This document shows, piece after piece, positions 1 to 12,859 of a DNA stretch of 37,773 bases. The DNA comes from a virus. Lineage: Duplodnaviria; Caudoviricetes. Both the position numbers and the translations under genes were made by a program. The stretch lies in IMG/VR virus record IMGVR_UViG_3300012844_000034, positions 1 through 37,773 of that record; one strand, given 5' to 3'. Within the stretch, counting starts at the first letter, position 1. Each line of letters starts with the position of its first letter. The notes under the pieces are model-generated. The model saw nothing but the letters and a program-made list of their open reading frames with translations. It was not told the origin of the DNA and made no database searches.

Positions 1-1
1 A

Positions 2-32
2 TGTACCAATCGACAGACGACGTGTACCAATC
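2..32 (+). repeat. Direct repeat TGTACCAATC x2, possible integrase arm-type binding sites
   Basis: Identical 10-mers at 2-11 and 23-32 (21-bp period) just before the likely integrase start; function is inferred. Confidence 0.45.
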
Positions 33-36
33 TCAG

Positions 37-1158
37 ATGGCAACGATCAGAACGCGTAAAAAGGCCGATGGCAGCACTAGCTACCTCGTCCAGATCCGCA
101 TTAATCGCGACAAGGTGACAGTCTACCAAGAGAGCCAAACGTTCGCCCGCAAACAGGCTGCAGTGGCCTGGGCGAAGCGACGGGAAACCGAGTTGTCTGA
201 GCCTGGTGCTATCGAGCGCGCCAACCGGGTAGGGCACACGGTCAAACAGATGATCGACCGGTACCTGGTAGAGGCAGAGAAAGCTCGGCCTCTGGGCGAG
301 ACCAAGCGACGCACTTTAAACGCCATCAAGAACAGCTACCTGGGTGAGATGGTCGACTCCGACATCAGCCAGCAGGTGCTGGTGGACTATTCCCTATGGC
401 GTATGAGCCCCGCAGGCGGTGGCATCAAACCGCAGACAGCAGGCAATGATCTGGCTCACCTGGGTTCAGTGTTGTCGCTTGCCAGGGCGGCGTGGGAGTA
501 CGAGATCAACCCCCAAGCTATGCCCGACGCACGCCTTGTCCTGAAACGCCTCGGCTACAACATGAAGAGCCGGGAGCGGGATCGCCGGCCAACGCTTGAA
601 GAACTCGACAAGGTGCTTGAGCATTTCTTCGAGATGCTTGCACGGCGTCCGACAGTCATTCACATGCCGAAGGTGGTTGCGTTTGCCATCTTTTCCACGC
701 GCCGTATGGACGAGATCGCTCGCATCATGTGGGAGGATCTGGATGAGCACCGCCAGGCGGTGAAAGTGCGGGACATGAAGAACCCCGGGCAGAAGATCGG
801 TAACGATGTGTGGTGCCATCTGCCGGATGAGGCGTGGGCGATTGTGCAAAGCATGCCGCGTCAGTGCGCTGAGATCTTCCCTTACAACACCGACTCAATC
901 GGCACGGCCTGGTCCAGAGCGTGCAAGATGGTTGGCGTGGAGGATCTGCATTTTCACGATCTGCGCCATGAAGGTGTGAGCCGGTTGTTCGAAATGGATT
1001 GGGATATCCCGAGGGTGTCGAGTGTTTCCGGTCATCGTGACTGGAACTCGCTGCGGCGTTACACCCATCTGAGGGGGCGTGGTGATCGATACATGGAGTG
1101 GAGTTGGTTAGAGCGGATTATCCAGGCCCCAGTCGCCCTAGGCGCCCGGGTTGAGTAG
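37..1158 (+). CDS. int: Tyrosine recombinase/phage integrase, resembling dusA-associated integrases
   Basis: Catalytic motifs STRRMDEI (R), HFHDLRHEG (HxxR), SGH and RRYTH (Y). The N-terminus MATIRTRKKADGSTSY suggests a start at ATG 37 rather than 1. Confidence 0.92.
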   Translation: MATIRTRKKADGSTSYLVQIRINRDKVTVYQESQTFARKQAAVAWAKRRETELSEPGAIERANRVGHTVKQMIDRYLVEAEKARPLGETKRRTLNAIKNSYLGEMVDSDISQQVLVDYSLWRMSPAGGGIKPQTAGNDLAHLGSVLSLARAAWEYEINPQAMPDARLVLKRLGYNMKSRERDRRPTLEELDKVLEHFFEMLARRPTVIHMPKVVAFAIFSTRRMDEIARIMWEDLDEHRQAVKVRDMKNPGQKIGNDVWCHLPDEAWAIVQSMPRQCAEIFPYNTDSIGTAWSRACKMVGVEDLHFHDLRHEGVSRLFEMDWDIPRVSSVSGHRDWNSLRRYTHLRGRGDRYMEWSWLERIIQAPVALGARVE

Positions 1159-1200: not shown

Positions 1201-1292
1201 AGCAGCGCTTTGAGTCGATCCAGCTGGCAGGAGTGGCCGCTTTCGACCCATAGCGGACTCTTGCAAAGGGCAGTAATCGTCCAAAAGCGGTA
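1201..1292. repeat. Palindromic 24-bp repeat cluster 1
   Basis: GGCCGCTTTCGACCCATAGCGGAC (1235-1258) and GGCAGTAATCGTCCAAAAGCGGTA (1269-1292), plus a degenerate copy near 1201-1226. Confidence 0.75.
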
Positions 1293-1533
1293 TTACCAAT
1301 GCTCCGTAGAGTTTCCTTGTTCCGGGCACAATATCATCCCATCGACAATGCGACGGAAATGCTCATCGCAGTCCTCTGTCGACGCGAGCCCCTTCGCAGA
1401 GGGGGCCTGCGGCCTCAGTAGTGTTTGTATTACTGATCGCTTATATTTGTTCGCCTGTGTGATTTTCGGAACCACTCGCGCGCCGCGGATCCACTGGCTA
1501 TTTAGACCGGCATCAAATCTAAAGGATGGCATC

Positions 1534-2229
1534 GTGGCGTGTTCTCGCGGCAAAGCAGCACCGGATAAGCTGACCGAAAAAAGGCTCTTTGCTTCGTCTG
1601 CTGGCTACTGCCAGCGGCCAGGGTGCACCACCCCCTTGTTTCGAGATACCGGAACCAAGGTAATCCACCTCGCTGAAATGGCCCACATTTTTGCGGCCAA
1701 TAACGATGGGCCGCGTGCAAACCCTGCTATGTCAGCAGAAGAGCGCGGAGCCTTTGAAAATCTAATTCTGCTGTGCCCTACATGTCATACGATGATCGAC
1801 AAAGCACCGCAAGATTTCCCAGATGGCACGGTCATTGGGTGGAAGCAGCAGCACGAACGAAAGCTCGCTCAGCTTTTTGGAGCCCAAAAGTTTTCGACAC
1901 GAGAGGAAACCTTTTTGGCAATCAGGCCACTGATGCTTCAAAATCGGATGATCCATCAGCAACTGAATCCTGAGTTGGAGTATCGCTACAATCCTGAGGC
2001 GGAAGAGGCGTCCCAATGGAAGCTAAAAATGGTCGAGCAGATCATACCTAATTCTCGTCGCGTCCTTAGCATCCTCGATGCGAATACCCGACTTATGACT
2101 GAGGAAGAGGAAGTTACACTGGAGTTGTTCAGGCAGCATGTTTATGACCTTGAAGCTCGACATATTGCCAAAATCCCTGCCGGAGCCCAGAGTCGGTTTC
2201 CGATCAAAATGAACGAGATGATGAGATAA
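1534..2229 (+). CDS. HNH endonuclease (Cap5-like Zn-HNH domain) with an unassigned helical C-terminal domain
   Basis: Motifs CQRPGC, AEMAHI, GPR and NLILLCPTCHTMID. GTG at 1534 follows AAAGGA (1521-1526) and is in frame with ORF 1183..2229. Confidence 0.85.
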   Translation: MACSRGKAAPDKLTEKRLFASSAGYCQRPGCTTPLFRDTGTKVIHLAEMAHIFAANNDGPRANPAMSAEERGAFENLILLCPTCHTMIDKAPQDFPDGTVIGWKQQHERKLAQLFGAQKFSTREETFLAIRPLMLQNRMIHQQLNPELEYRYNPEAEEASQWKLKMVEQIIPNSRRVLSILDANTRLMTEEEEVTLELFRQHVYDLEARHIAKIPAGAQSRFPIKMNEMMR

Positions 2230-2233
2230 GACG

Positions 2234-2905
2234 ATGGCACGGAGCCCTCAGGACAACACAAATTTTGCCAGCAGCATGATTGCCAGAATGACTGAAGTTG
2301 TACAACGAGTGGAGACCGTTACTCCGTATTCGTTCCTAGTGCACACGGAAAAATTTCCCCCTGTGCGGGTAGGTGTACTCTCGATAAACAAGGTTGAAGC
2401 ATCAGATATCCAAAGATTGCTCGATGCAGATCCAAGAGTCGAGTTCATAGCGAATATTCCGAAGGTCGGAGTATGGCAAGGCTCAGCAATCCACCTTCTG
2501 CAAGAAAAGGGAGTTGCTTTTGGCCCTGTGAAACACTTGATGGGCGCCATCAGTGGCCGACGAGATGAGGAGCCTCTCAATGATTATGAGCACGCAGAAA
2601 CTAAATATTTCAAGACGATATTGTCCCAGCACAAAAATTTGCATAAATTGGTGCGTATTACTGACTTGATTTATGAATTCCACCGCAAAAACGGCGAGCC
2701 CCTTCTGATTGCCGGTTTGAATGATTATGAACTGACAGGTGTCATGATTCGAGCGGCAGTTGCTCAGCACGGTCAAGTCTCGATAATTTTTGCGACCAAC
2801 CCCAATGGCGGGCCTACACCCGAAGCGTACGACGCCGCAAAATCCATGGGCATTGAGTTGTACGATCAGAGGAATGATTTCTACCGCAGGCTACACACTC
2901 CATGA
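2234..2905 (+). CDS. Hypothetical protein with two apparently duplicated alpha/beta domains (possibly degenerate restriction-endonuclease-like fold)
   Basis: 223 aa, starts 4 nt after the HNH stop. The C-terminus IIFATNPNGGPTPEAYDAAKSMGIELYD resembles the end of Mrr-type domains. Confidence 0.7.
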   Translation: MARSPQDNTNFASSMIARMTEVVQRVETVTPYSFLVHTEKFPPVRVGVLSINKVEASDIQRLLDADPRVEFIANIPKVGVWQGSAIHLLQEKGVAFGPVKHLMGAISGRRDEEPLNDYEHAETKYFKTILSQHKNLHKLVRITDLIYEFHRKNGEPLLIAGLNDYELTGVMIRAAVAQHGQVSIIFATNPNGGPTPEAYDAAKSMGIELYDQRNDFYRRLHTP

Positions 2906-3246
2906 GTGTTGCACAGTTGCTGCAATGCCTCACGAAGGTTATAGATCTGACCGAATCATCCGTCTCTAATGCAAGATGGTTCGGCTTCGGGTCATTTTTT
3001 TTGAGCACAAAACACTTCAGCGATGTCGATCTGTTAGTCGTGTGCGAGACACAGGAGGACGGCATTTTGATTTATCAAATGTGTCGTGAACTTTTGGCCG
3101 AATGGCCAGTCGACCTCCTGATAATGACTCAGACCGAAGCAGCCGATACTTCGTTCATCGTCAGGTGGGGCTGTATCCCCCTACTTGGGGGGATTCCGCA
3201 TTGGCGGACGAGCCAAGGTGCGACTTCCCCTGATGAAAACTGTTGA
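2902..3246 (+). CDS. Minimal nucleotidyltransferase (Pol-beta superfamily, MNT-like)
   Basis: FGFGSF...SDVDLLVV (GS plus DxD) and a third acidic residue in PVDLLIM; ATGA overlap with the upstream gene. Confidence 0.8.
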   Translation: MSVAQLLQCLTKVIDLTESSVSNARWFGFGSFFLSTKHFSDVDLLVVCETQEDGILIYQMCRELLAEWPVDLLIMTQTEAADTSFIVRWGCIPLLGGIPHWRTSQGATSPDENC

Positions 3247-3284
3247 GGGACAATCTCTTGCACCGAACCTATGGCACCTTAAAC

Positions 3285-3341
3285 GCCTGCGTTGATCGCT
3301 GCCTGATCGAAACGACAGGCAGCTCTGGGTTGAAAGCCGTC
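3285..3341. repeat. Palindromic repeat cluster 2
   Basis: GGCAGCTCTGGGTTGAAAGCCGTC at 3318-3341 and a degenerate unit near 3285-3303. Confidence 0.7.
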
Positions 3342-3482
3342 ACTCACTAACGTTTAAGCCAGGCAGCGCCTGTCAGAGACTTCAAGCCGGTAGCGAATCC
3401 CTAAATTGAATTTGGTAGAATTCTCCAATGGCCACTGCTCTTTCTTGGGGCTGTACGAATAACTTTACCAAGTTTTGAATTT

Positions 3483-4172
3483 TCACCTTTCCTTACCATG
3501 CGCGCCCAATTGTTCTGGAGAACCCCGCAGTGTGCGGCATGTATTGCAATTCAATGGCAGGGCAAGATCCTCTGATTCACTTTCGGAAAATTTAATAACA
3601 CACAAACCTAAGTCCCTTAGCGCATCGTTACCAACGACCTCCCGGATATCCGATAGCATTTTCGCATCAAGGAGAAGTTTATCAGCGGTTTCCTCCGCGC
3701 CGGACCGTCTCAAGCCACGAACCTTGCGTATCGCCACATTGCAACTCCAACACTCATCTTCCGCGCATAGCAAGGTAAATTGCTCTTTTCCATCTTGGTC
3801 GCCCAGATAGCACGAAACTCACAAACTTCGGTAGCGGCACCTCAATCTCTTAATCATTGATATAGATATATCGCTGATCATTTAAAGCTCGAAGGCTGGA
3901 AGAATAAAAGAAGGTTCGAGCCTGCTTCGAGTGAGTCTAGACGCCAACCATAGCGATTTAACGCCTGACTCGATATACATGCGCTGATGCCTATTGAACT
4001 CTTCAGGGGGCTGCCCAGACAGGTGCACTTCAATCACCCTTGCTTCGTCATCTCTATTTCAATAGACATCCGCGACCCACTGATACCCGGATGGGGCGGC
4101 TCCGCGAAATTCCGTGATTGCACGCCAGACCACATCAATTGAAATCGGGTAACGCTGCCCGAGTGCGCCATC
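3483..4172 (-). pseudogene. Degraded CoiA-like PD-(D/E)xK nuclease with Cys-rich C-terminus
   Basis: Manual minus-strand translation reads WRAITEFRGAAPSGYQWVADVY*NRDDEARVIEVHLSGQPPEEFNRHQRMYIESGVKSLWL, with stops at 4059-4061 and 3882-3884. The downstream fragment 3483..3773 has CWSC and CNTC. Confidence 0.6.
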
Positions 4173-4189
4173 CGCTCACCCTTGTAAGT

Positions 4190-4220
4190 CGCGACCATCC
4201 CCTATCGGCCGGTCACGGAC
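4190..4220. repeat. Degenerate palindromic repeat unit (cluster 3)
   Basis: ATCCCCTATCGGCCGGTCACGGAC near 4198-4220 partly matches the unit (CTATCGGCC...CGGAC). Confidence 0.35.
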
Positions 4221-4348
4221 GTCGGCAAGGGACTCATTCAGCACCAACATAGTTTCCTGGACTATGGAGTCTGCAATGGCCTACTATCTCAGTCTGCGTC
4301 TTTGGCAGGCCACTAGCCTAATCAAAAATTGATGTTAGAGAAAAACTC

Positions 4349-4750
4349 ATGAAAAAAAGGACTTTTGACTTTTACAGGCTGTTGCACGAGATCGAGTTTG
4401 AGATAGGAAGCGAATGCTACAATGGCAATATTCAGAACTTCGGTCCTGGTGGGTCTTGGGAGGGGGATGGTAGAGATTTTCGCTACCCAGTTCGTTTCAC
4501 CAATGCTGAAGGCGAGCGCGAGAAATACAGAGGAAAGTTCCCGTTTACGAAGAGCTCTAGCGGGGAAGTAGCATACTGCATTCTCGGCGAAAGTCGTTTT
4601 AGTTCTGCTCACTATGCTTTTGGGGCGAATGAGCTTTACATTATGCGAGGAATCAAACACGCTCTTGAAAAGTTAGAGTCACGATTCGGCATAGACTTTG
4701 ATGAGCTATTGAAACAGGAAAAGACCTCCGAGAAAGGGGGGGCAAATTAG
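4349..4750 (+). CDS. Hypothetical protein (accessory cargo)
   Basis: 133-aa ORF with protein-like composition, AT-rich, lying between repeat clusters; no recognised family. Confidence 0.75.
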   Translation: MKKRTFDFYRLLHEIEFEIGSECYNGNIQNFGPGGSWEGDGRDFRYPVRFTNAEGEREKYRGKFPFTKSSSGEVAYCILGESRFSSAHYAFGANELYIMRGIKHALEKLESRFGIDFDELLKQEKTSEKGGAN

Positions 4751-4878
4751 ATTGTTTGTGACAAATCTTGCTACAGGCGTTAAGTTATCAGCGGTTTTTG
4801 TACAGAAGTCGACTCCTGCTTTTGTGGCTGTCTGTGTTCCTAGCTGGAGATCGCGGAAAACTTAATTCAACCCGGGGG

Positions 4879-5003
4879 GGCTGAAACTGGCCATTTGCCA
4901 CACCCTACCAACGGCGGCTATGGGTCGAAAGCGGACGGTCGCGAGCGGCCGCAATCGCCCCAAAGCGGCCGGTGGCGGCGAGCAAAGAACGGCCAAAGCC
5001 GAC
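4879..5003. repeat. Palindromic repeat cluster 4, four units at a 34-bp period
   Basis: Units start at 4879, 4913 (GGCGGCTATGGGTCGAAAGCGGAC), 4947 (GGCCGCAATCGCCCCAAAGCGGCC) and 4981; the outer two are degenerate. Confidence 0.8.
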
Positions 5004-5060
5004 TAATCGTGGCATCTACCAAATCAGCGAAAAGTCATCTTGTTGGCAAGCGAGGTCAAG

Positions 5061-5816
5061 TTAACGCTCATAAATTGGCCTAGGATCTGTATGCTCTAGA
5101 CGGCGGTTCTGTGCAATAGATGCAATCCTGCCACTGAGTATAATTAGCAGCCTGGTGCAAGCTTGCGAGTAATAGTGTTTCGCATCAAAGGTGTAATTGT
5201 CGTTAAAGGTCTTTCGGTAAAGGTCTTTGCATTTGTCGTGCAAGGAAGTGTCTGCGAGTGAAATTCCTAGCTTGTGTGCAAAGCTGTTCCGAACTGCTCG
5301 CACTACCTCAATTGCTTGTAGTTCATCTTTCGAAATAAGACCGAGTGAGAAAGCTGCCTTCGTTCGAGCTGAAAAGGCGGAGAGCGGACCGCTGCCTCTA
5401 CGAAGCATGTCCTTCGTAATGGTGCTTTCAACGAGAAACTGCTCTAGTAGCCGACATAGCATTTCATCCACCATTGACGCCCAGACGAGAACAAGCCCTC
5501 TCTCAGTACCGCTGGCGTTCTCGCGATTGGCCTCTTCGAGAAACTCATGGATATCGTGCCACCCGACAGGTAAGGCTGGCGGATGTAATTCTTCATGTAC
5601 TAGTGACGGTGCGTCGAGTTTCGCCGGAGCTACATTGCCGAATTCACCGGATACGCATCGCTCGAATATTTCTCTCCCGTGGGGTTCTGAGTCTAACGGG
5701 GAGGCCGTAAAAGGCACTTCTTGCCCGAGGTGCTCAAAGAAGACCTGGCAATTGATAGAGGAGCATTCGCTGCTGGACCAGTGCGGTTCACGCACATCGC
5801 GGTAGTTGATTTTCAT
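5061..5816 (-). CDS. Fusion of a tail-fibre-assembly (Tfa)-like N-terminal domain and an MtlR-family HEPN domain
   Basis: N-terminus has PHWSSSECSSINCQVFFEHLGQEVPFTASPLDSEPHGREIFERCVSGEFG. C-terminus has TERGLVLV, GPLSAFSART, LGLIS and VRNSFAH (RxxxxH at 5274-5291). Start is at 5816 or 5822. Confidence 0.8.
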   Translation of the reverse strand: MKINYRDVREPHWSSSECSSINCQVFFEHLGQEVPFTASPLDSEPHGREIFERCVSGEFGNVAPAKLDAPSLVHEELHPPALPVGWHDIHEFLEEANRENASGTERGLVLVWASMVDEMLCRLLEQFLVESTITKDMLRRGSGPLSAFSARTKAAFSLGLISKDELQAIEVVRAVRNSFAHKLGISLADTSLHDKCKDLYRKTFNDNYTFDAKHYYSQACTRLLIILSGRIASIAQNRRLEHTDPRPIYER

Positions 5817-5881
5817 TGTCATCTCATTCTGGTAATTAGTATGGCCGCCGTAAAGCACGCGGATATTCTAGTTCATCCCAT

Positions 5882-6012
5882 GACTGCATTTGGCCTCTTC
5901 TGCCGGTGCTGACCGGCAGCTTTGGGTCGAAAGCGGTCACTACCACATAATGGATTTGGGCATTTTCAGCCGTTCTGATCCAGCCGATTTAGGGGGCGGG
6001 TCGATAGCCGCC
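5882..6012. repeat. Palindromic repeat cluster 5
   Basis: GGCAGCTTTGGGTCGAAAGCGGTC at 5915-5938, with degenerate units at 5882-5904 and about 5995-6012 (GGCGGGTCGATAGCCGCC). Confidence 0.75.
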
Positions 6013-6143: not shown

Positions 6144-6407
6144 TCACCTCTTATTCAATTGCGCACACTCTTTTCGCGCAGCATCCCGCTGCTGGTCCAG
6201 GTAGAGAGCCAGATCAGCAATGTGTATGCCTCGGGCGCTCTTCTGGCTCGGTTCAAGCCGGGTGATCGGCAGCTTGATCTCTCCGGCCAGCACCTTGCGT
6301 TGGAATACAAGCGGCGTTAGGTGCGTGAAGTAGTCAGCGCATACCTGTTCGAGCGAGATTATCGCCGTGCCGTTGTACTGCGCCATCAAAACAAAGGCCG
6401 TGTTCAC
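6144..6407 (-). CDS. Pyocin activator PrtN-family DNA-binding protein
   Basis: MNTAFVLMAQY...CADYF.HLT...SQKSARGIHIADLALYLD is the typical family pattern. Confidence 0.88.
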   Translation of the reverse strand: MNTAFVLMAQYNGTAIISLEQVCADYFTHLTPLVFQRKVLAGEIKLPITRLEPSQKSARGIHIADLALYLDQQRDAARKECAQLNKR

Positions 6408-7237: not shown

Positions 7238-7477
7238 TTAGCTCGTCTTCTGCGCTTGGGTGTCGAGGTAGTCGGCAAGGTCGTGCAGGTAAATCACATA
7301 CTGCGCTCGGACCGAGTGGTGTAGCTTTTTAGGGTTCAACCCAATCTTTCCGGCGTTGATCAGTTCCCTGAATCGGCGGTCTGTTTTGATATGTGGAAAG
7401 TAGTGTTCTCGCACGGCAGTCAAGGTCGGGCAGGGAGTGCCCCATTGTTTGAACAGTTGCCCAAACGTGCCCGTCAT
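7238..7477 (-). CDS. Second, divergent PrtN-like DNA-binding protein
   Basis: LTAVREHYFPHI...INAGKIGL...IYLHDLADYLD parallels the 6144..6407 protein; ATGA overlap at 7474-7477. Confidence 0.75.
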   Translation of the reverse strand: MTGTFGQLFKQWGTPCPTLTAVREHYFPHIKTDRRFRELINAGKIGLNPKKLHHSVRAQYVIYLHDLADYLDTQAQKTS

Positions 7478-7983
7478 TGGCGGTCCCCGTACCCTACATG
7501 GGGTTGGCCGAGCCTGGTTCGTACTGCATTCGCAAGCGTGAGCTTGCAACTGCCGTATGCAGTCGTGCAGATATCGCCCTGCTCATTAGTTACAACGATG
7601 CCGAAGGGCTGGTTTTCGTCCGTGGTGGGAGTGATGTAAGCGCGCAGGCCTTCAGGTAACACATCGCTCACGCAGTCGAGCGCTTCCATCAAGGCGATGG
7701 CGCGCTGGGTCTGTTGGCCCGACTCAGTTCGGCCATTGGCCACGTCCTGCAGGAAGTTGCGAAGGGCCATGTACTTGGTCGAGTCGCCGCGCCGCAGGGT
7801 GATCGAGCCCGTGTAGGGGCCAAAGCGCACCTGCAGGTGGTGGTCGCGGTCGTCGTTCTCAACCAGGATGTGGGCGTCGAGAGAGGTTTCAGGGCGGTTC
7901 AAGGGGCAGGTGGTGTTGCCGCCATTCTCCAGCGTGCGCTCCAGCAGCATCACGCGGCGCAGCTTGATTGTGAAATCACTCAT
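7474..7983 (-). CDS. Phage hypothetical protein
   Basis: 169-aa ORF translationally coupled within the early-left operon. Confidence 0.7.
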   Translation of the reverse strand: MSDFTIKLRRVMLLERTLENGGNTTCPLNRPETSLDAHILVENDDRDHHLQVRFGPYTGSITLRRGDSTKYMALRNFLQDVANGRTESGQQTQRAIALMEALDCVSDVLPEGLRAYITPTTDENQPFGIVVTNEQGDICTTAYGSCKLTLANAVRTRLGQPHVGYGDRQ

Positions 7984-8240: not shown

Positions 8241-8899
8241 TAAAAGATTTCAACCTTCGATACGACCACGCCACAAATGGTTGCGTCACTCGGCAGTTCG
8301 ATGATTGGGTCCGGCCAAGATGGGTTCAGAGGCTTCAAAAAGTGCCGCTCACCCTCTACCACCAGCTGCTTGAAGGTTGCCTCTTTGCTGTTTGCCAGCT
8401 TGACGATGACCAGGGAGCCATTTTCATAGTCCCTAGCCGGGTCGACAAAGATGATATCTCCCTCTCTGAAGGAACGACGCTCATGCGGGTTAAACATGGA
8501 AAGACCGCGAACCCGCAGGGCAAAAGTCGCACTGCTGTGTGAGACGGCGCAGGGTAACCAAGCTTCTGCAGCCTCAAGTTCAAACGGTTCTTGCATCTCG
8601 CACCAGGCTCCGGCCTGTACCCAAGAAATCAGAGGTACGAAGCCACGAACGTTCGGTCCTGGCTCCACATTGGCCGTTGGCCCGAGTGGCGGCTGACTGC
8701 CACCTTCTCCCTTCCATAGCCAATCAGTAGTCACACCGAGGGCTTTTGCGATCCGCTCGACATTCTCATGCCGGGGGCTAGCGGATGTGCCCGACAGAAT
8801 CCTATGGATGGTTGGCTGTGGTACTCCCGAACGTCGGGCGAGCTCACCGCCTGACAGCCCGAGTTCATGCATGCGTTTTGCTACGCGATTCCCTATCAC
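8240..8899 (-). CDS. cI: CI-like repressor (HTH plus S24 LexA-type peptidase)
   Basis: HTH LSGGELARRSGVPQPTIHRI, VQAG cleavage site, GLSM catalytic Ser and ATFKQL Lys; divergent from cro. Confidence 0.93.
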   Translation of the reverse strand: MIGNRVAKRMHELGLSGGELARRSGVPQPTIHRILSGTSASPRHENVERIAKALGVTTDWLWKGEGGSQPPLGPTANVEPGPNVRGFVPLISWVQAGAWCEMQEPFELEAAEAWLPCAVSHSSATFALRVRGLSMFNPHERRSFREGDIIFVDPARDYENGSLVIVKLANSKEATFKQLVVEGERHFLKPLNPSWPDPIIELPSDATICGVVVSKVEIF

Positions 8900-8913
8900 T
8901 GCGGATTGCTCTG

Positions 8914-8986
8914 ATTAGTTTGCGTATCACAAGTGTATTGCTCTGATCTATTCGTTTGGGTAACATCTGGTTATTCGCTAACGAAT
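8914..8986. promoter_or_regulatory. Right operator cluster between cI and cro
   Basis: ATTAGTTTGCGTAT (8914-8927), ATTCGTTTGGGTAA (8950-8963) and ATTCGCTAACGAAT (8973-8986). Confidence 0.6.
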
Positions 8987-8996
8987 AGGTTGCATC

Positions 8997-9194
8997 ATGT
9001 CCATACAAGAGATGCTTGGAGCGCTAATCGAGAGGGGCTTCTCGCAACGCGCGATTGCAGAGCGGGTTGGCGTTACTCAGCCCACCATCTATCGCGCCAC
9101 CAAGGGGGCGGCGGTTCGCTACGAGGTAGGCAAAGCTATCGAGGCTTTTTACGAGGAGCAGGTAGTAGGAAGCAAGTGCAAGAAGGAACACTGA
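8997..9194 (+). CDS. cro: Cro-like HTH regulator
   Basis: FSQRAIAERVGVTQPTIYR HTH; shares QPTIxR with the repressor recognition helix. Confidence 0.85.
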   Translation: MSIQEMLGALIERGFSQRAIAERVGVTQPTIYRATKGAAVRYEVGKAIEAFYEEQVVGSKCKKEH

Positions 9195-9298
9195 GCTAGG
9201 GCCTCTCACCACAAGAATCCCCTAGCTCAGCGAGAACGGCGCATAGCGCCGATGTACCCCGCCATCCGGTCGCCTCTCACCACAAGATCCGACGGATG
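9191..9298 (+). promoter_or_regulatory. Two tandem hairpins with near-identical loops CCTCTCACCACAAGA(A)TC
   Basis: Stems CTGAGCTAGGG/CCCTAGCTCAG (9191-9230) and CATCCGGTCG/CGACGGATG (9263-9298). Confidence 0.6.
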
Positions 9299-9412
9299 AC
9301 TAGAACCGCGTGAAATGCCCGCACAGCACGCAAAGCACAACACACCGGTCGTATTCACAGGATAGGACGTTGAAAGCCCTGTGACTACACCGTAAACCGA
9401 GGATTTACGGTT

Positions 9413-9901
9413 ATGAGTCGCATTGATCTATTGCCGGGTGCAGGCCCGGTGCTCACCTTGCGGCAGGCGCTCTATCGCGCAGGTCGTGACTATCACGGCG
9501 GAATGACCAGGCTGGCCTTCGACATGGGGCTGGATGTGGACACGCTTCAAAAGAAGCTCAACCATAACGAAGAGCGCCGCTGGCCCACTCCCGACGAGCT
9601 GGAAGAGATCGTTCAGTTGACTGCAAGTCCGCGTCTGCTGGATGCCCTGGTACGTCCAGCCGGTGCAGTTTGGTACCGCCCTGAACCAGTGCCAGCGACC
9701 AACGAGGCACTGCAGGCGGTTGCCAAGCTCCTTGAGGAGTCCAGCGAGTTTGTCGGGAGCCTTCATGATGGGGCCGCAGACAACGTCTGGACCCCGGTAG
9801 AGGTTGTCGACCTGGAGCAACGTGGCATGGATGTTATCCGCCAGGTGCTGGCTATCATGGCGGGCGCTCGCCAGGCCATGGAGGAAAGCACCCATGGTTG
9901 A
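9413..9901 (+). CDS. Phage regulatory CII-family protein
   Basis: 162 aa, LAFDMG...TLQKKLN HTH-like start followed by a helical C-terminus; located after cro. Confidence 0.7.
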   Translation: MSRIDLLPGAGPVLTLRQALYRAGRDYHGGMTRLAFDMGLDVDTLQKKLNHNEERRWPTPDELEEIVQLTASPRLLDALVRPAGAVWYRPEPVPATNEALQAVAKLLEESSEFVGSLHDGAADNVWTPVEVVDLEQRGMDVIRQVLAIMAGARQAMEESTHG

Positions 9902-10097
9902 TGTGGTCGATGTAGCCAATTATCAAGCCGATTACCACCTGCAAGTGGCCCTTCAGCGTCGCCCTCGTCCCGTGACAAAGCCCAGTTCGGAGTTCTGCGA
10001 TGACTGCGGCGAGCCAATTCCGATGAAGCGGCAGCAACTGGTGGCGGGTTGCGAAACCTGCACCAGTTGTCAGGAGCTACGGGAGCGGCGCAGATGA
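9894..10097 (+). CDS. TraR/DksA C4-type zinc-finger protein
   Basis: MVDVVDVAN...CDDCGEPIPMKR...CETCTSCQ. Confidence 0.88.
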   Translation: MVDVVDVANYQADYHLQVALQRRPRPVTKPSSEFCDDCGEPIPMKRQQLVAGCETCTSCQELRERRR

Positions 10098-12859
10098 AAG
10101 AGCGCCCAATTCCTACCACAGCTGATTGGGCGCGGCGTTACATTCAAACCTTCAATCTCGCCCTGGTTCCTATGGAGCCAGGCACGAAGGGGCCGACGCA
10201 AGAAGGCTGGAATAAACCCGGTGGCTATTTTACTGATGTCGCAAGCGCCGAGCAGTTTTGGGTCGCAAATCCGAGTCACAACCTGGGCGTTGTACTCGGC
10301 CCGAGCCGTGTCTGCTCCCTTGATGTTGACGACGTTGAATTCACTCGATTGGTGCTTCAGCAGACCCATGGCATCGACGTTGATGCGCTCGCGGAGTCAT
10401 ACCCTACCTCTGTGGGCAATCCCGCACGATTCCGCATCATGTTCCGCGTTCCTGATGGCGTAGAGCTGAAGAAGCATGCGCTTGTATGGCCGAACAAGAA
10501 TGACCCCGAGGGCATTATTCACAAGGGGCTGATGGCTCAGGTAAGGGCTGCAGTCGATGCAAAAGATGAAGCCAGGGAGGCGGCACTCCGCATGGCCGCT
10601 GAGCCATTCAAAAAGCTCACCGTGTTCGAGCTTCGCGCTGGTCTAGTGCAGGACGTATTGCCTCCGTCGATCCATCCGGGTACTGGCAAGCCGTACACTT
10701 GGCGTAAGGCGCCGGACGCAAACGGTTTGCCTGATCTGCCTGGGGAGTTGCTGGCAATCTGGCAGGGTTGGGAAGAGTTCAAACCGAATGGCGAGGCGTT
10801 GTGCCCTTGGAGGCCTCAGCCTGCTGTTCCAGTGAGTAGACCTGCAGTCGCTCTCCGCCCCGCAGCTGCCCGTTCCGGAGAGCCGCTGCCCGAGGTCATT
10901 CCTGAGTTCAACCGCATCCACGACATCGCCATGATGATCGAGGCGCATGGCTACAAGCGGGTGGGCGGCAAGTGGTTGTGCCCGCAAAGCAGTTCCGGCC
11001 TTCCAGGCGTGACGATTACTGACGACAAAAAACTGTACTCGCACCACACCTCTGACCCGCTGGCGAACGGACACAAGAACGATGCGTTCGATGTGTTCCG
11101 CATCTTGATGCACAACGGTGACCAGCGGGCAGCCACCCGAGCTGCTGCGCAGATCCTTGGCATTGACGCCCAGTCACGCCCGCCGGCTCCGCCGCCATTG
11201 GGCGAACTTCCCCATGCCCCATCAGTGGTTGAGCAGGCCGAACAGCGGCCGGCTGATGCCGGCAACGTCGAGTATCTTCCCCGCACACCATCGGGCGGAG
11301 AGGAGACCAGCCCGGCCGGCTCCTCGGCCACCGGGGGGGCGGGGGGCGATGCCTTGGACATTGATGGCGCGATGCGTCGATTCGCTTTGGTCGAAGGCTC
11401 CACGAACGTGTGGGACTTCGATAAAAGGCGGTCGATGAAGCGGACAGGCTTTGAGGCCCTGATTGGAAAGCCGCTCGCGAAGGCGTGGATGGAGCGGACT
11501 GACAAGAAGCTCATAGCCTCCGAGCAGGTGGCAGAGCTTGAGCAGGCCCGAAAGATGTCGAGCAAGAAGGGCGGAGCGCTGAAGCTTGAACCGCTCGACC
11601 GGTACATCTATATCGACGGTACGAAAGAGGCTTGGGATCGCGAGAAGAAACGGCGCCTGCCCGAGGGTAGCGTCAAGATGGCCCTGGGTGATGCTTATCA
11701 ACTCTGGCTGAACAGCCCTGAGCGGCGGGTAGTGGACGTCGACCACATCGTGTTTGACCCGACGATGACCAAGGACCCGGCAATCTATATCAACACGTTC
11801 GAGGGCTTGCCGCTTGCGCCGGTCCGTGATGATGCTGCGTGCGAGAACCTGCGGTGGCTGATCTCATTCCTTTGCAACAATGACGCTGAAGCGCGGGATT
11901 GGCTGGTCAAGTGGCTGGCTTACCCGCTACAGCATATGGGTGCGAAGATGGACACCGCCATCTTGTTTCACTCGACCATGGAGGGCTCGGGTAAGAGCCT
12001 GCTGTTCGCCGACATTATGGGCGAGCTATACGGTCGGTACAGCGCCACGGTTGGACAAACGCAACTGGAAGGCAACTTCAACGCTTGGCAGAGCGGAAAG
12101 CTGTGGGCCGTGTTTGAAGAGGTTGTAAGCCGTGACCAGCGCTACAACCAGGTTGGCAAGATCAAACACATGATTACCGGCAAAACGGTGCGGATGGAAT
12201 CGAAGTTCATCAACGGCTGGGAAGAAGCCAACCACATGAACTCGGCGTTCCTGAGCAACGAGATCATGCCGTGGCCGATCAGTGAAGACGACCGTCGAAT
12301 GCTGGTGATGTGGCCAATGGAGACCCTGCCAGCGGAAAGGCAGAAAGCTATCGCCCGAGAGTTAGCCAATGGTGGCGTGGCCGCTTTATACGGCTGGCTA
12401 TTAGATATCGACCTTGAGGATTTCAACCAGCGCACGCGCCCGCCGAAAACCGAGGCTCGCCAGCGGCTTGTCGAGCTGAGTCGCACCGCCTGGCAGACCT
12501 TTTTCTACCTCTGGCGAAACGGCGAACTGGGGCACGGCCTATGGGGTTGCTGCCTGACTTCGGACGTCTACGCCATGTTTCTTGAGTGGTGTTCCCACAA
12601 CAAAGAAAACTCCATGAGCCATACAAAATTTTCGCTGATGTTCAGCGCGAAGGTTGAGAAGACGCGGCCCATCCCTTGGACAGACGGCAGTTCTCGAAGA
12701 TTTGCGGCGTTCTTTGTGCCCAGTGAGGGTGATCCTTCCCTGCCCCCATCCATGAAGTCGGCCGAGCTAGGCAAAACGGTTGTCGAGTGGCGTGCCCGAG
12801 CCAAGCTGGCAGGGTGGAGCGTGGACGGTTGGGACCATATCAAGAGGCTTGCAGCATGA
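10094..12859 (+). CDS. Bifunctional primase-polymerase fused to an SF3/D5-like helicase
   Basis: Prim-Pol motifs NLGVVLG, SLDVDD and LPPSIHP.TGKPY.W; Walker A EGSGKS, Walker B VFEE, and FLSNE. Confidence 0.88.
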   Translation: MKERPIPTTADWARRYIQTFNLALVPMEPGTKGPTQEGWNKPGGYFTDVASAEQFWVANPSHNLGVVLGPSRVCSLDVDDVEFTRLVLQQTHGIDVDALAESYPTSVGNPARFRIMFRVPDGVELKKHALVWPNKNDPEGIIHKGLMAQVRAAVDAKDEAREAALRMAAEPFKKLTVFELRAGLVQDVLPPSIHPGTGKPYTWRKAPDANGLPDLPGELLAIWQGWEEFKPNGEALCPWRPQPAVPVSRPAVALRPAAARSGEPLPEVIPEFNRIHDIAMMIEAHGYKRVGGKWLCPQSSSGLPGVTITDDKKLYSHHTSDPLANGHKNDAFDVFRILMHNGDQRAATRAAAQILGIDAQSRPPAPPPLGELPHAPSVVEQAEQRPADAGNVEYLPRTPSGGEETSPAGSSATGGAGGDALDIDGAMRRFALVEGSTNVWDFDKRRSMKRTGFEALIGKPLAKAWMERTDKKLIASEQVAELEQARKMSSKKGGALKLEPLDRYIYIDGTKEAWDREKKRRLPEGSVKMALGDAYQLWLNSPERRVVDVDHIVFDPTMTKDPAIYINTFEGLPLAPVRDDAACENLRWLISFLCNNDAEARDWLVKWLAYPLQHMGAKMDTAILFHSTMEGSGKSLLFADIMGELYGRYSATVGQTQLEGNFNAWQSGKLWAVFEEVVSRDQRYNQVGKIKHMITGKTVRMESKFINGWEEANHMNSAFLSNEIMPWPISEDDRRMLVMWPMETLPAERQKAIARELANGGVAALYGWLLDIDLEDFNQRTRPPKTEARQRLVELSRTAWQTFFYLWRNGELGHGLWGCCLTSDVYAMFLEWCSHNKENSMSHTKFSLMFSAKVEKTRPIPWTDGSSRRFAAFFVPSEGDPSLPPSMKSAELGKTVVEWRARAKLAGWSVDGWDHIKRLAA

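Follow-up and report, generated by a model that had tools for sequence, protein, structure and literature searches.

Palindromic repeats beside a prophage integrase gene mark the junctions of cargo swaps and inversion and are candidate sites of a small tyrosine recombinase

Introduction

How cargo is exchanged precisely in prophage defence hotspots is an open question. It is raised by a 37,773-nt stretch of Caudoviricetes DNA (IMG/VR record IMGVR_UViG_3300012844_000034, positions 1 to 37,773; the whole stretch is called the window below), a locus that supplies crossover points, a natural inversion, a grammar of sites and a testable enzyme. A prophage tyrosine integrase gene (int, 1..1158, plus strand; PF00589, phrog_1) and a PrtN-like gene (6144..6407, minus strand) form the fixed left and right flanks of a slot with a GC content of 0.47–0.53, compared with about 0.62 around it. 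To judge by the nearest phages and proteins, the host is a Pseudomonas. Copies of a 24-bp palindromic repeat recur in this slot. A sequence-only reading of the window had taken them for recombination sites or insertion scars of an integron-like system that loads defence cargo next to the integrase. What do the repeats do, and which enzyme acts on them?

Repeats in the window

Each site consists of two symmetric arms of 9–14 bp flanking a 6-bp centre that is asymmetric (in Pseudomonas, GGGTCG or TGGCCG) and gives the site its direction; the consensus is AATGTCCGCTTT-GGGTCG-AAAGCGGACATT. The six full copies listed by the sequence-only reading were recovered letter for letter at 1235, 1269, 3318, 4913, 4947 and 5915, as was the shared 18-mer, identical between 1237–1254 (reverse complement) and 4917–4934 and one base different at 5915. 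When 31.7 kb of phage backbone was scanned on both strands with a leave-one-out model of the six copies, these scored 15.9–28.1 bits against a backbone maximum of 11.7–13.5; since all six outscored it, the backbone contains no full copy, as had been claimed. Stacking of units at 33–34 bp was borne out as well; alone, the units at 4879, 4981 and 5882 score <5 bits, and they are recognised only by register and by agreement with the TGGCCG centre at 5/6 or 6/6 positions. A degenerate copy proposed at about 4198 found no support, its 8.5 bits (5.9 by another scoring) lying below backbone noise. Two further degenerate sites, with centres at 1212–1217 and 5998–6003, were added to the list. The idea that a repeat stands at every cargo boundary held in part: sites do punctuate the slot, but the three genes at 1534–3246 form a single unit and not every gene boundary has a site.

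Cargo junctions in related prophages

We compared the slot among 80 viral loci carrying a window-type integrase. It was empty in 41 of them (gap 21–38 bp), loaded in 37 (0.6–5.6 kb of cargo) and rearranged in two. At the left junction, four relatives (L001, L002, L005 and L006) matched the window through the centre at 1244–1249 and then diverged, the inner arm keeping the consensus only. Pairwise identity of the left flank among five loci was 0.80–1.0 through the centre, 0.77/0.58 in the inner arm and 0.17–0.37 beyond. The right junction had the mirror-image pattern at 5924–5929 in seven loci. The repeats mark the exact junctions of cargo swap or inversion in related prophages, in agreement with the expectation that cargo changes would coincide with them. 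The two findings that the sequence-only reading had named as fatal to itself, cargo boundaries failing to coincide with the repeats and membership of the repeats in a known REP or terminator family, did not emerge. The 38 slots compared had almost no cargo in common. In L036 and L037, the backbone block after int was reversed with a single joint at a site, reflecting either real rearrangement or misassembly; both loci were excluded from the junction evidence.

A natural inversion was found in a public assembly, that of run X7, in contigs aligned to the window. The whole 4.7-kb cargo block was reversed relative to int and xis, with joints at 1168/5941 and 1235/6013 on opposite strands, 255-nt sides, and both joints in register with the terminal sites. 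The inverted centre begins 169 bp after int, and the left terminal site lies at 165–170 in eight long-leader relatives. The other joint fits the 5998–6003 site if a one-base allele, present in 10 of 14 relatives, is allowed. In run X4, a single 4732-nt contig covered 1233–5939 with eight differences and continued into other sequence that included a further site; this run, which may be mixed and whose contigs break at repeats, was given less weight. Apparent skips in X4 from 1258 to 5911/5915 were rejected as deletions, their sides being 22–24 nt.

Transfer between contexts was also seen. The 253-amino-acid (aa) cargo gene of the window recurs with 83% DNA identity in L489, beside a SRAP gene and between outward-facing sites, and in both loci homology starts 8–10 bp inside the left site. 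A second site-bounded hotspot adjoins SRAP/umuDC-like genes in other Pseudomonas-type prophages (L207, L211, L221, L223, L225 and L489). The 74-bp stretch between the right-hand sites of the window (5915–5990) recurs at 83% identity on a Pseudomonas chromosome beside a GNAT gene (L240:10574-10648), so even gene-less segments move between sites.

Position alone might suggest that the adjacent integrase drives an integron-like system on these sites. The slot begins 80 bp past int, and the six-copy model gave 41 matches in 86 kb of slots compared with 10 in 764 kb outside (67 and 6 with a slot-refined model, a partly circular comparison). Against this, 41 of 80 relatives with the same type of integrase have an empty, site-free slot, where half-sites were detected in 0/35 cases upstream of int and 2/41 downstream. 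The same sites occur far from any such integrase, at SRAP/umuDC hotspots, on chromosomes and around fun of phage P2. The terminal sites are mutually inverted, and the window integrase scored 19 bits on the integron-integrase model (cut-off 265). The excision and integration cycle that had been tied to this integrase finds no support in these observations; an integrase-driven system is very improbable, and the window integrase is probably not the enzyme of the sites. The remark that the repeats are not attC sites stands: 0/67 sites lay inside a RYYYAAC...GTTRRRY pair, with only four such pairs in the slots and none in the window slot.

Structure and orientation of the sites

Arms were separated by a gap of 10 nt in 146 matches, with five or fewer matches at any other gap of 4–18. 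Secondary copies located by their arms alone numbered 140 in 593 kb versus three in shuffles; their orientation was assigned from G content, and the G counts at their centre are inflated by this choice. No covariation between arms beyond column frequency was detected in these copies. The fixed gap, the conserved centre and the lack of covariation together fit a double-stranded protein site rather than a hairpin. Very probably, the repeats are double-stranded recombination sites with crossover at the 6-bp centre, as their arms, spacing and mapped junctions suggest.

Alternatively, the repeats could be a REP/REPIN or terminator family gathering in accessory DNA, and the facing pair at 4905–4978 does fold well (z −5.0). 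Single units fold at chance level in four of five cases (z −1.7 to +1.2; the remaining one at −2.3), no covariation accompanies them, and GTAG/GTGG tags and T-runs occur at 8/67 and 3/67 sites, respectively. A scan of the repeats against Rfam matched no family, and strict copies number about four per Pseudomonas genome. No RAYT-type family recurred among 880 open reading frames (ORFs) near sites, a result based on unannotated clusters without a search aimed at RAYT. Junction mapping contradicts this explanation, the least probable of those weighed here.

With direction set by the centre, segments between sites obeyed a simple grammar. Those of ≤40 bp were direct in 17 cases, inward in 16 and outward in none, whereas 37 of the 56 segments >300 bp were outward (GC 0.50), 13 direct and six inward (GC 0.60). 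Cargo is enclosed by outward-facing sites; inward-facing or co-directional ones enclose the 28-bp linkers. As the terminal sites are mutually inverted, inversions and double-crossover swaps are predicted, not single-cassette circles. By the same dif-module-like layout, a single module flanked by outward-facing sites should be inverted or swapped, not excised. Stacked units, previously suggested to mark lost cassettes, are therefore linkers that follow a fixed grammar and do not require loss.

From left to right, the window slot comprises a site pair, module 1, a site, middle cargo, a four-site stack, the last module and a site pair. The outermost left site (1203..1226, plus strand) is degenerate, with centre GAGTCG at 1212–1217; five relatives (L018, L019, L025, L030 and L032) carry its intact counterpart 34 bp ahead of the left terminal site. 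Crossover points of cargo swaps are the left terminal site (1235..1258, minus strand; centre GGGTCG on the minus strand, 1244–1249) and the right terminal site (5915..5938, plus strand; centre GGGTCG at 5924–5929). An inner site of the TGGCCG class (1269..1292, minus strand; centre TGGACG) lies 34 bp from 1235, and module 1 is closed by a plus-strand site at 3318..3341 (centre GGGTTG). The stack begins with a degenerate TGGCCG-class site (4879..4902, plus strand; centre TGGCCA), followed by a GGGTCG site (4913..4936, plus strand), a GGGGCG site facing it across a 28-bp linker (4947..4970, minus strand) and another degenerate TGGCCG-class site with the exact centre (4981..5004, minus strand); the first and last of these four are placed by register and centre only. 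A further degenerate TGGCCG-class site (5882..5905, plus strand; centre TGGCCT) precedes 5915 by 33 bp and has an intact version in L001, L005 and L043. The outermost right site (5989..6012, plus strand; centre GGGTCG at 5998–6003), whose inner arm is decayed in the window, is the right cargo boundary in L004, L006, L007, L017 and the inverted assembly X7.

Short-homology exchange, by RecA or phage annealing proteins with the repeats as conserved linkers, could be invoked instead: the repeats are the sole sequence common to donor and recipient contexts, and the window encodes no enzyme for them. The copies are, however, only about 70% alike among themselves, yet their arm spacing is fixed, junctions fall in register at the centre and orientation is grammatical. 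Homology alone gives no ground for spacing, register or grammar, which makes this route improbable.

Distribution and known relatives of the sites

A scan of Pseudomonas genomes, proposed with the sequence-only reading, found the strict pattern in 181 of 201 genomes, giving 784 matches in all and far fewer in the control. Site and recombinase tallies for this genus include two unpublished genomes, and the result is unchanged without them. The exact 18-mer was found at at least 126 loci of a species-genome collection (about 940 stretches estimated), belonging by record title to alpha-, beta- and gammaproteobacteria and to some metagenome-assembled genomes of other phyla. A loose arms-only pattern stayed at control level across the phylum and was not used. 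Phage copies with the same arms carried other centres, GTGCCA (36/105) and GAGCGA (27/105).

The closest precedent is phage P2. Its fun gene lies between inverted repeats that allow site-specific exchange (PMC8987985), and Nilsson, Karlsson and Haggard-Ljungquist (2004) are cited for the Z/fun repeats of P2-like coliphages (PMC8987985; bioRxiv 10.1101/2021.01.21.427644). When the 33.6-kb P2 genome was scanned with an arms-only model learnt from other DNA, the two fun(Z) flanks ranked first and second (20.5 and 10.3 bits; the third hit scored 10.0). Both systems have the same arms, spacing and a 6-bp centre, and their sites face outward around unrelated, swappable anti-phage cargo in a fixed slot. 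On these shared features the window sites can be assigned to the P2 fun(Z)-flanking family, the 2004 repeats being equated by their position around fun(Z) only. They differ in centre (GTGCCA and GAGCGA classes in enterobacterial phages, GGGTCG and TGGCCG here), and the window prophage, with a lambda-like head and a contractile tail, stacks several modules and linkers, unlike P2 Z/fun.

dif modules of Acinetobacter plasmids are similar in organisation: modules of two classes alternate, some are empty, and they undergo inversion or are replaced singly by way of cointegrates (PMC13141974). pdif sites likewise have two arms and a 6-bp centre, with modules between inverted sites and inversion between identical centres, as in X7. 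Unlike pdif sites, the sites described here have symmetric arms without distinct XerC and XerD boxes and take their direction from the centre; they range over Proteobacteria and phages, and their candidate enzyme is mobile rather than chromosomal. Integrons and clusters of attC sites lacking integron-integrases (CALIN) resemble this system in that small accessory or defence genes stand in arrays that break at repeated sites; co-directional arrays of our sites do occur in Caulobacter genome G005. They differ in that our sites have fixed length and no attC cores, hairpin covariation or IntI, and that the window and the Pseudomonas loci have mixed site orientation and multi-gene modules in either gene direction. 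The sites are thus members of neither the integron, pdif nor REP families, yet they work like dif modules. In G005 (L230–L233; contigs C23, C24 and C28), the co-directional sites are spaced 250–2000 bp apart and the arrays hold small genes of lower GC content (Imm35, Cys-rich CPCC). This layout is integron-like, in an assembly in which the small recombinase described below was not found.

Insertion sequences (IS) of the IS1182 family provided an independent mark of the site centre. In L240, an IS1182 transposase gene (8898–10556) sits inside a split site whose central 4 bp are duplicated. Ends of this subgroup were recognised in 12 of 14 viral loci, and 15 of these 18 ends adjoin a half-site with a score of ≥9; scores are the best of two centre orientations, and two loci are near duplicates. 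Elements at site centres were seen in L240, L491–L504, L475, L003, L010 and L011, the last with a 155-bp miniature element between two half-sites. This subgroup parallels the IS1202-family elements that hunt pdif sites (PMC10132070), here with an IS1182-family element inserting in the centre. One might then regard the repeats as targets or scars of an IS1182-family transposition that also moves the cargo, given the abutting arm and centre, the 4-bp centre duplication and the remnants of IS ends that bound the slots in L003, L010 and L011. The IS ends are unlike the arms and appear in only 3/37 slots, most junction sites are intact, and the IS splits a site already present; it is highly improbable that transposition accounts for the repeats.

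A candidate recombinase

Clustering of the 880 ORFs, which came from 149 site loci, revealed no recurring recombinase in cis, and no recombinase besides int was found in the window (best tblastn E value 1.2). A candidate was traced from a short PF00589 gene adjoining a site in L237. Members of its family have about 205 aa and a Xer/Cre-like catalytic fold (Foldseek matches XerA, XerH and Cre) without a core-binding domain. The catalytic set R57, K85, H154, R157, H180 and Y189 is invariant in 69 sequences, and the median dN/dS of 0.044 indicates strong purifying selection. Both ends were located by pattern in 18 of 27 loci, where the gene forms a unit of 714–723 bp whose inner ends are conserved and whose flanks are unrelated.

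Of 88 loci retrieved solely by their protein, four partial ones were dropped and the flanks of the other 84 examined. Inward half-sites were present upstream in 39/80 and downstream in 43/77 loci, compared with 5/80 and 4/77 for outward half-sites, 74/2562 for distal positions and 21/3140 for shuffled sequence. This test was chosen after the flanks had been inspected and was then rerun on a fresh Pseudomonas set, where inward half-sites were found in 20/25 and 22/25 loci and outward ones in none (49 positive genomes yielded these 25 loci). On the same kind of flank, the full symmetric model detected next to nothing (3/83 and 11/80) because the inner arms of the unit are shifted. Carriers comprised 49/201 Pseudomonas genomes, 10/151 genomes phylum-wide and 336 plasmids, of which 149 were predicted to be conjugative. 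In L464–L488 and L371–L450, a conserved hairpin covers the ribosome-binding site of the recombinase gene and the downstream inner arm lies within a terminator-like hairpin; tight control of expression by these hairpins is possible.

FimB and FimE are catalytic-domain-only recombinases of about 200 aa that invert DNA between inverted sites, and lox-type cassette exchange swaps DNA between two site pairs. The candidate resembles them in size, in the inversion and in the swap between two site pairs attributed to its presumed sites. Unlike FimB/FimE, it scored 34 bits on the invertase model (cut-off 222); on TIGR02249 (cut-off 265), it scored, with the window integrase, 19–22 bits. It matches no subgroup described in the accessible part of PMC8138268. 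From its fold and its site-bracketed position, this small recombinase is fairly likely to be the enzyme of the sites.

Cargo genes and flanks

Module 1 holds three plus-strand genes: an HNH nuclease-domain gene resembling CBASS/SAVED-HNH effectors (1534..2229; PF13391; PADLOC PDC-M68A, E value 3e-30 over about 100 residues; start codon uncertain), a 223-aa gene of no family (2234..2905), whose relatives include hypothetical proteins of Pseudomonas syringae, and a gene with a weak minimal-nucleotidyltransferase match (2902..3246; PF18765/PF01909 below cut-off). The middle cargo includes a decayed or non-coding stretch (3342..4340) with short frames only, no Pfam match and the weak, unsupported site candidate near 4197; fragments at 3483–4198 resembled a nuclease remnant, a reading rejected for want of a Pfam match. 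A 133-aa gene of no assigned function follows (4349..4750, plus strand), with a 76% DNA match in genome G135, there without clear sites. The 253-aa gene of the last module (5061..5822, minus strand) encodes a tail-fibre-like N-terminus of 65 residues followed by an MtlR-like domain; the protein may be an effector to which a phage part has been fused as decoy or sensor. Both the 253-aa and the 223-aa gene occurred in 0/301 Pseudomonas genomes, atlas look-ups named no function for the two cargo proteins of unassigned function, and in an annotated phage collection only int and xis had matches, the cargo being in no record.

The description of the cargo as defence-type was often, not always, apt. 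In relatives, 18 of 60 cargo ORFs matched PADLOC at E ≤ 1e-8, roughly half of these lying in slots where no site was detected, and the remainder included transporters or signalling genes; "defence-rich" is meant here as a description, not as a claim of enrichment. Defence-type cargo (PD-Lambda-5, AbiU, AAA ATPases, methylases) was also seen in int-xis slots without detectable sites in L015, L016, L023, L038, L041, L044 and L077.

The right-flank gene (6144..6407; PF11112) is most likely an excisionase gene, judging by its match to phrog_1300 (excisionase, E value 3e-33) and the annotation of phage Haddon. The prophage has a second PrtN-family gene at 7238–7486; the first is the one that scores as an excisionase.

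Discussion

We consider it likely, with moderate confidence, that the repeats are swap and inversion junctions cut at the 6-bp centre by a small trans-acting tyrosine recombinase encoded elsewhere. Recombination between inverted terminal sites would flip the cargo block. Two successive crossovers with another molecule, that is, cointegrate formation and resolution at the second site, would swap cargo, and recombination within a co-directional pair of sites would insert or remove cargo together with a linker. The enzyme would be the approximately 205-aa catalytic-domain-only recombinase, which would visit on plasmids and islands in its own unit of about 720 bp between inward-facing sites and act in trans.

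Several observations weigh against this explanation. Among the 37 loaded slots, 13 showed no full site, so cargo is also acquired or retained in their absence. The X7 and X4 evidence comes from alignment of contigs rather than from base-by-base reading, and unitigs are in any case broken by repeats. Mean site counts were 3.92 in Pseudomonas genomes with the recombinase (n = 49) and 3.89 in those without (n = 152; p-value 0.9). The recombinase was not found in genomes G001, G002, G003, G444 and G005, the last of which has 27 exact sites. A site-bracketed position is also expected of a passenger, and the inner arms of the unit are shifted by one base. In several loci the unit has GGGTCG on one side and TGGCCG on the other, and centre identity is therefore not a strict barrier. 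A transient visitor outlived by its sites may explain the lack of correlation, and another enzyme would explain it equally.

Such an enzyme could be the host XerC/XerD or another conserved or mobile recombinase, acting on genuine sites with the small recombinase as a passenger or helper. Sites that are far more widespread than the candidate and uncorrelated with it, the large G005 arrays and the dif-like 6-bp centre all favour this alternative. Symmetric arms, of which 1/134 begins with the Xer-type TTAT motif, speak against it, as do the conserved inverted ends of the recombinase unit itself, oriented opposite to cargo, and its strong purifying selection. We regard a host or other enzyme as unlikely, though not negligible, and favour the small recombinase.

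As far as the accessible text of the sources shows, both the family of sites and the proposal of site-specific exchange have been in print for P2 since 2004, and the range, grammar, candidate enzyme and IS appear to be new here. In the literature outside subscription journals and supplements, we found no printed motif, named enzyme, wider range, grammar or IS1182 targeting, and the accessible sections of PMC10250203 mention no such motif.

In most Pseudomonas genomes, and outside the genus too, the motif directly flags accessory and defence genes that can be swapped. A recombinase of 205 residues with 24–30-bp sites would make a compact genetic tool. There is a slightly better than even chance that the sites and the recombinase-only unit of about 720 bp constitute a general gene-cassette system, the third after integrons and dif modules, that would load, flip and swap defence modules. 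If so, its exchange network would span prophages, plasmids and chromosomes across Proteobacteria, would account for the variable slot of P2, for which an enzyme has been lacking since 2004, and would be of sufficient age to be accompanied by an IS1182 subgroup that hunts its sites.

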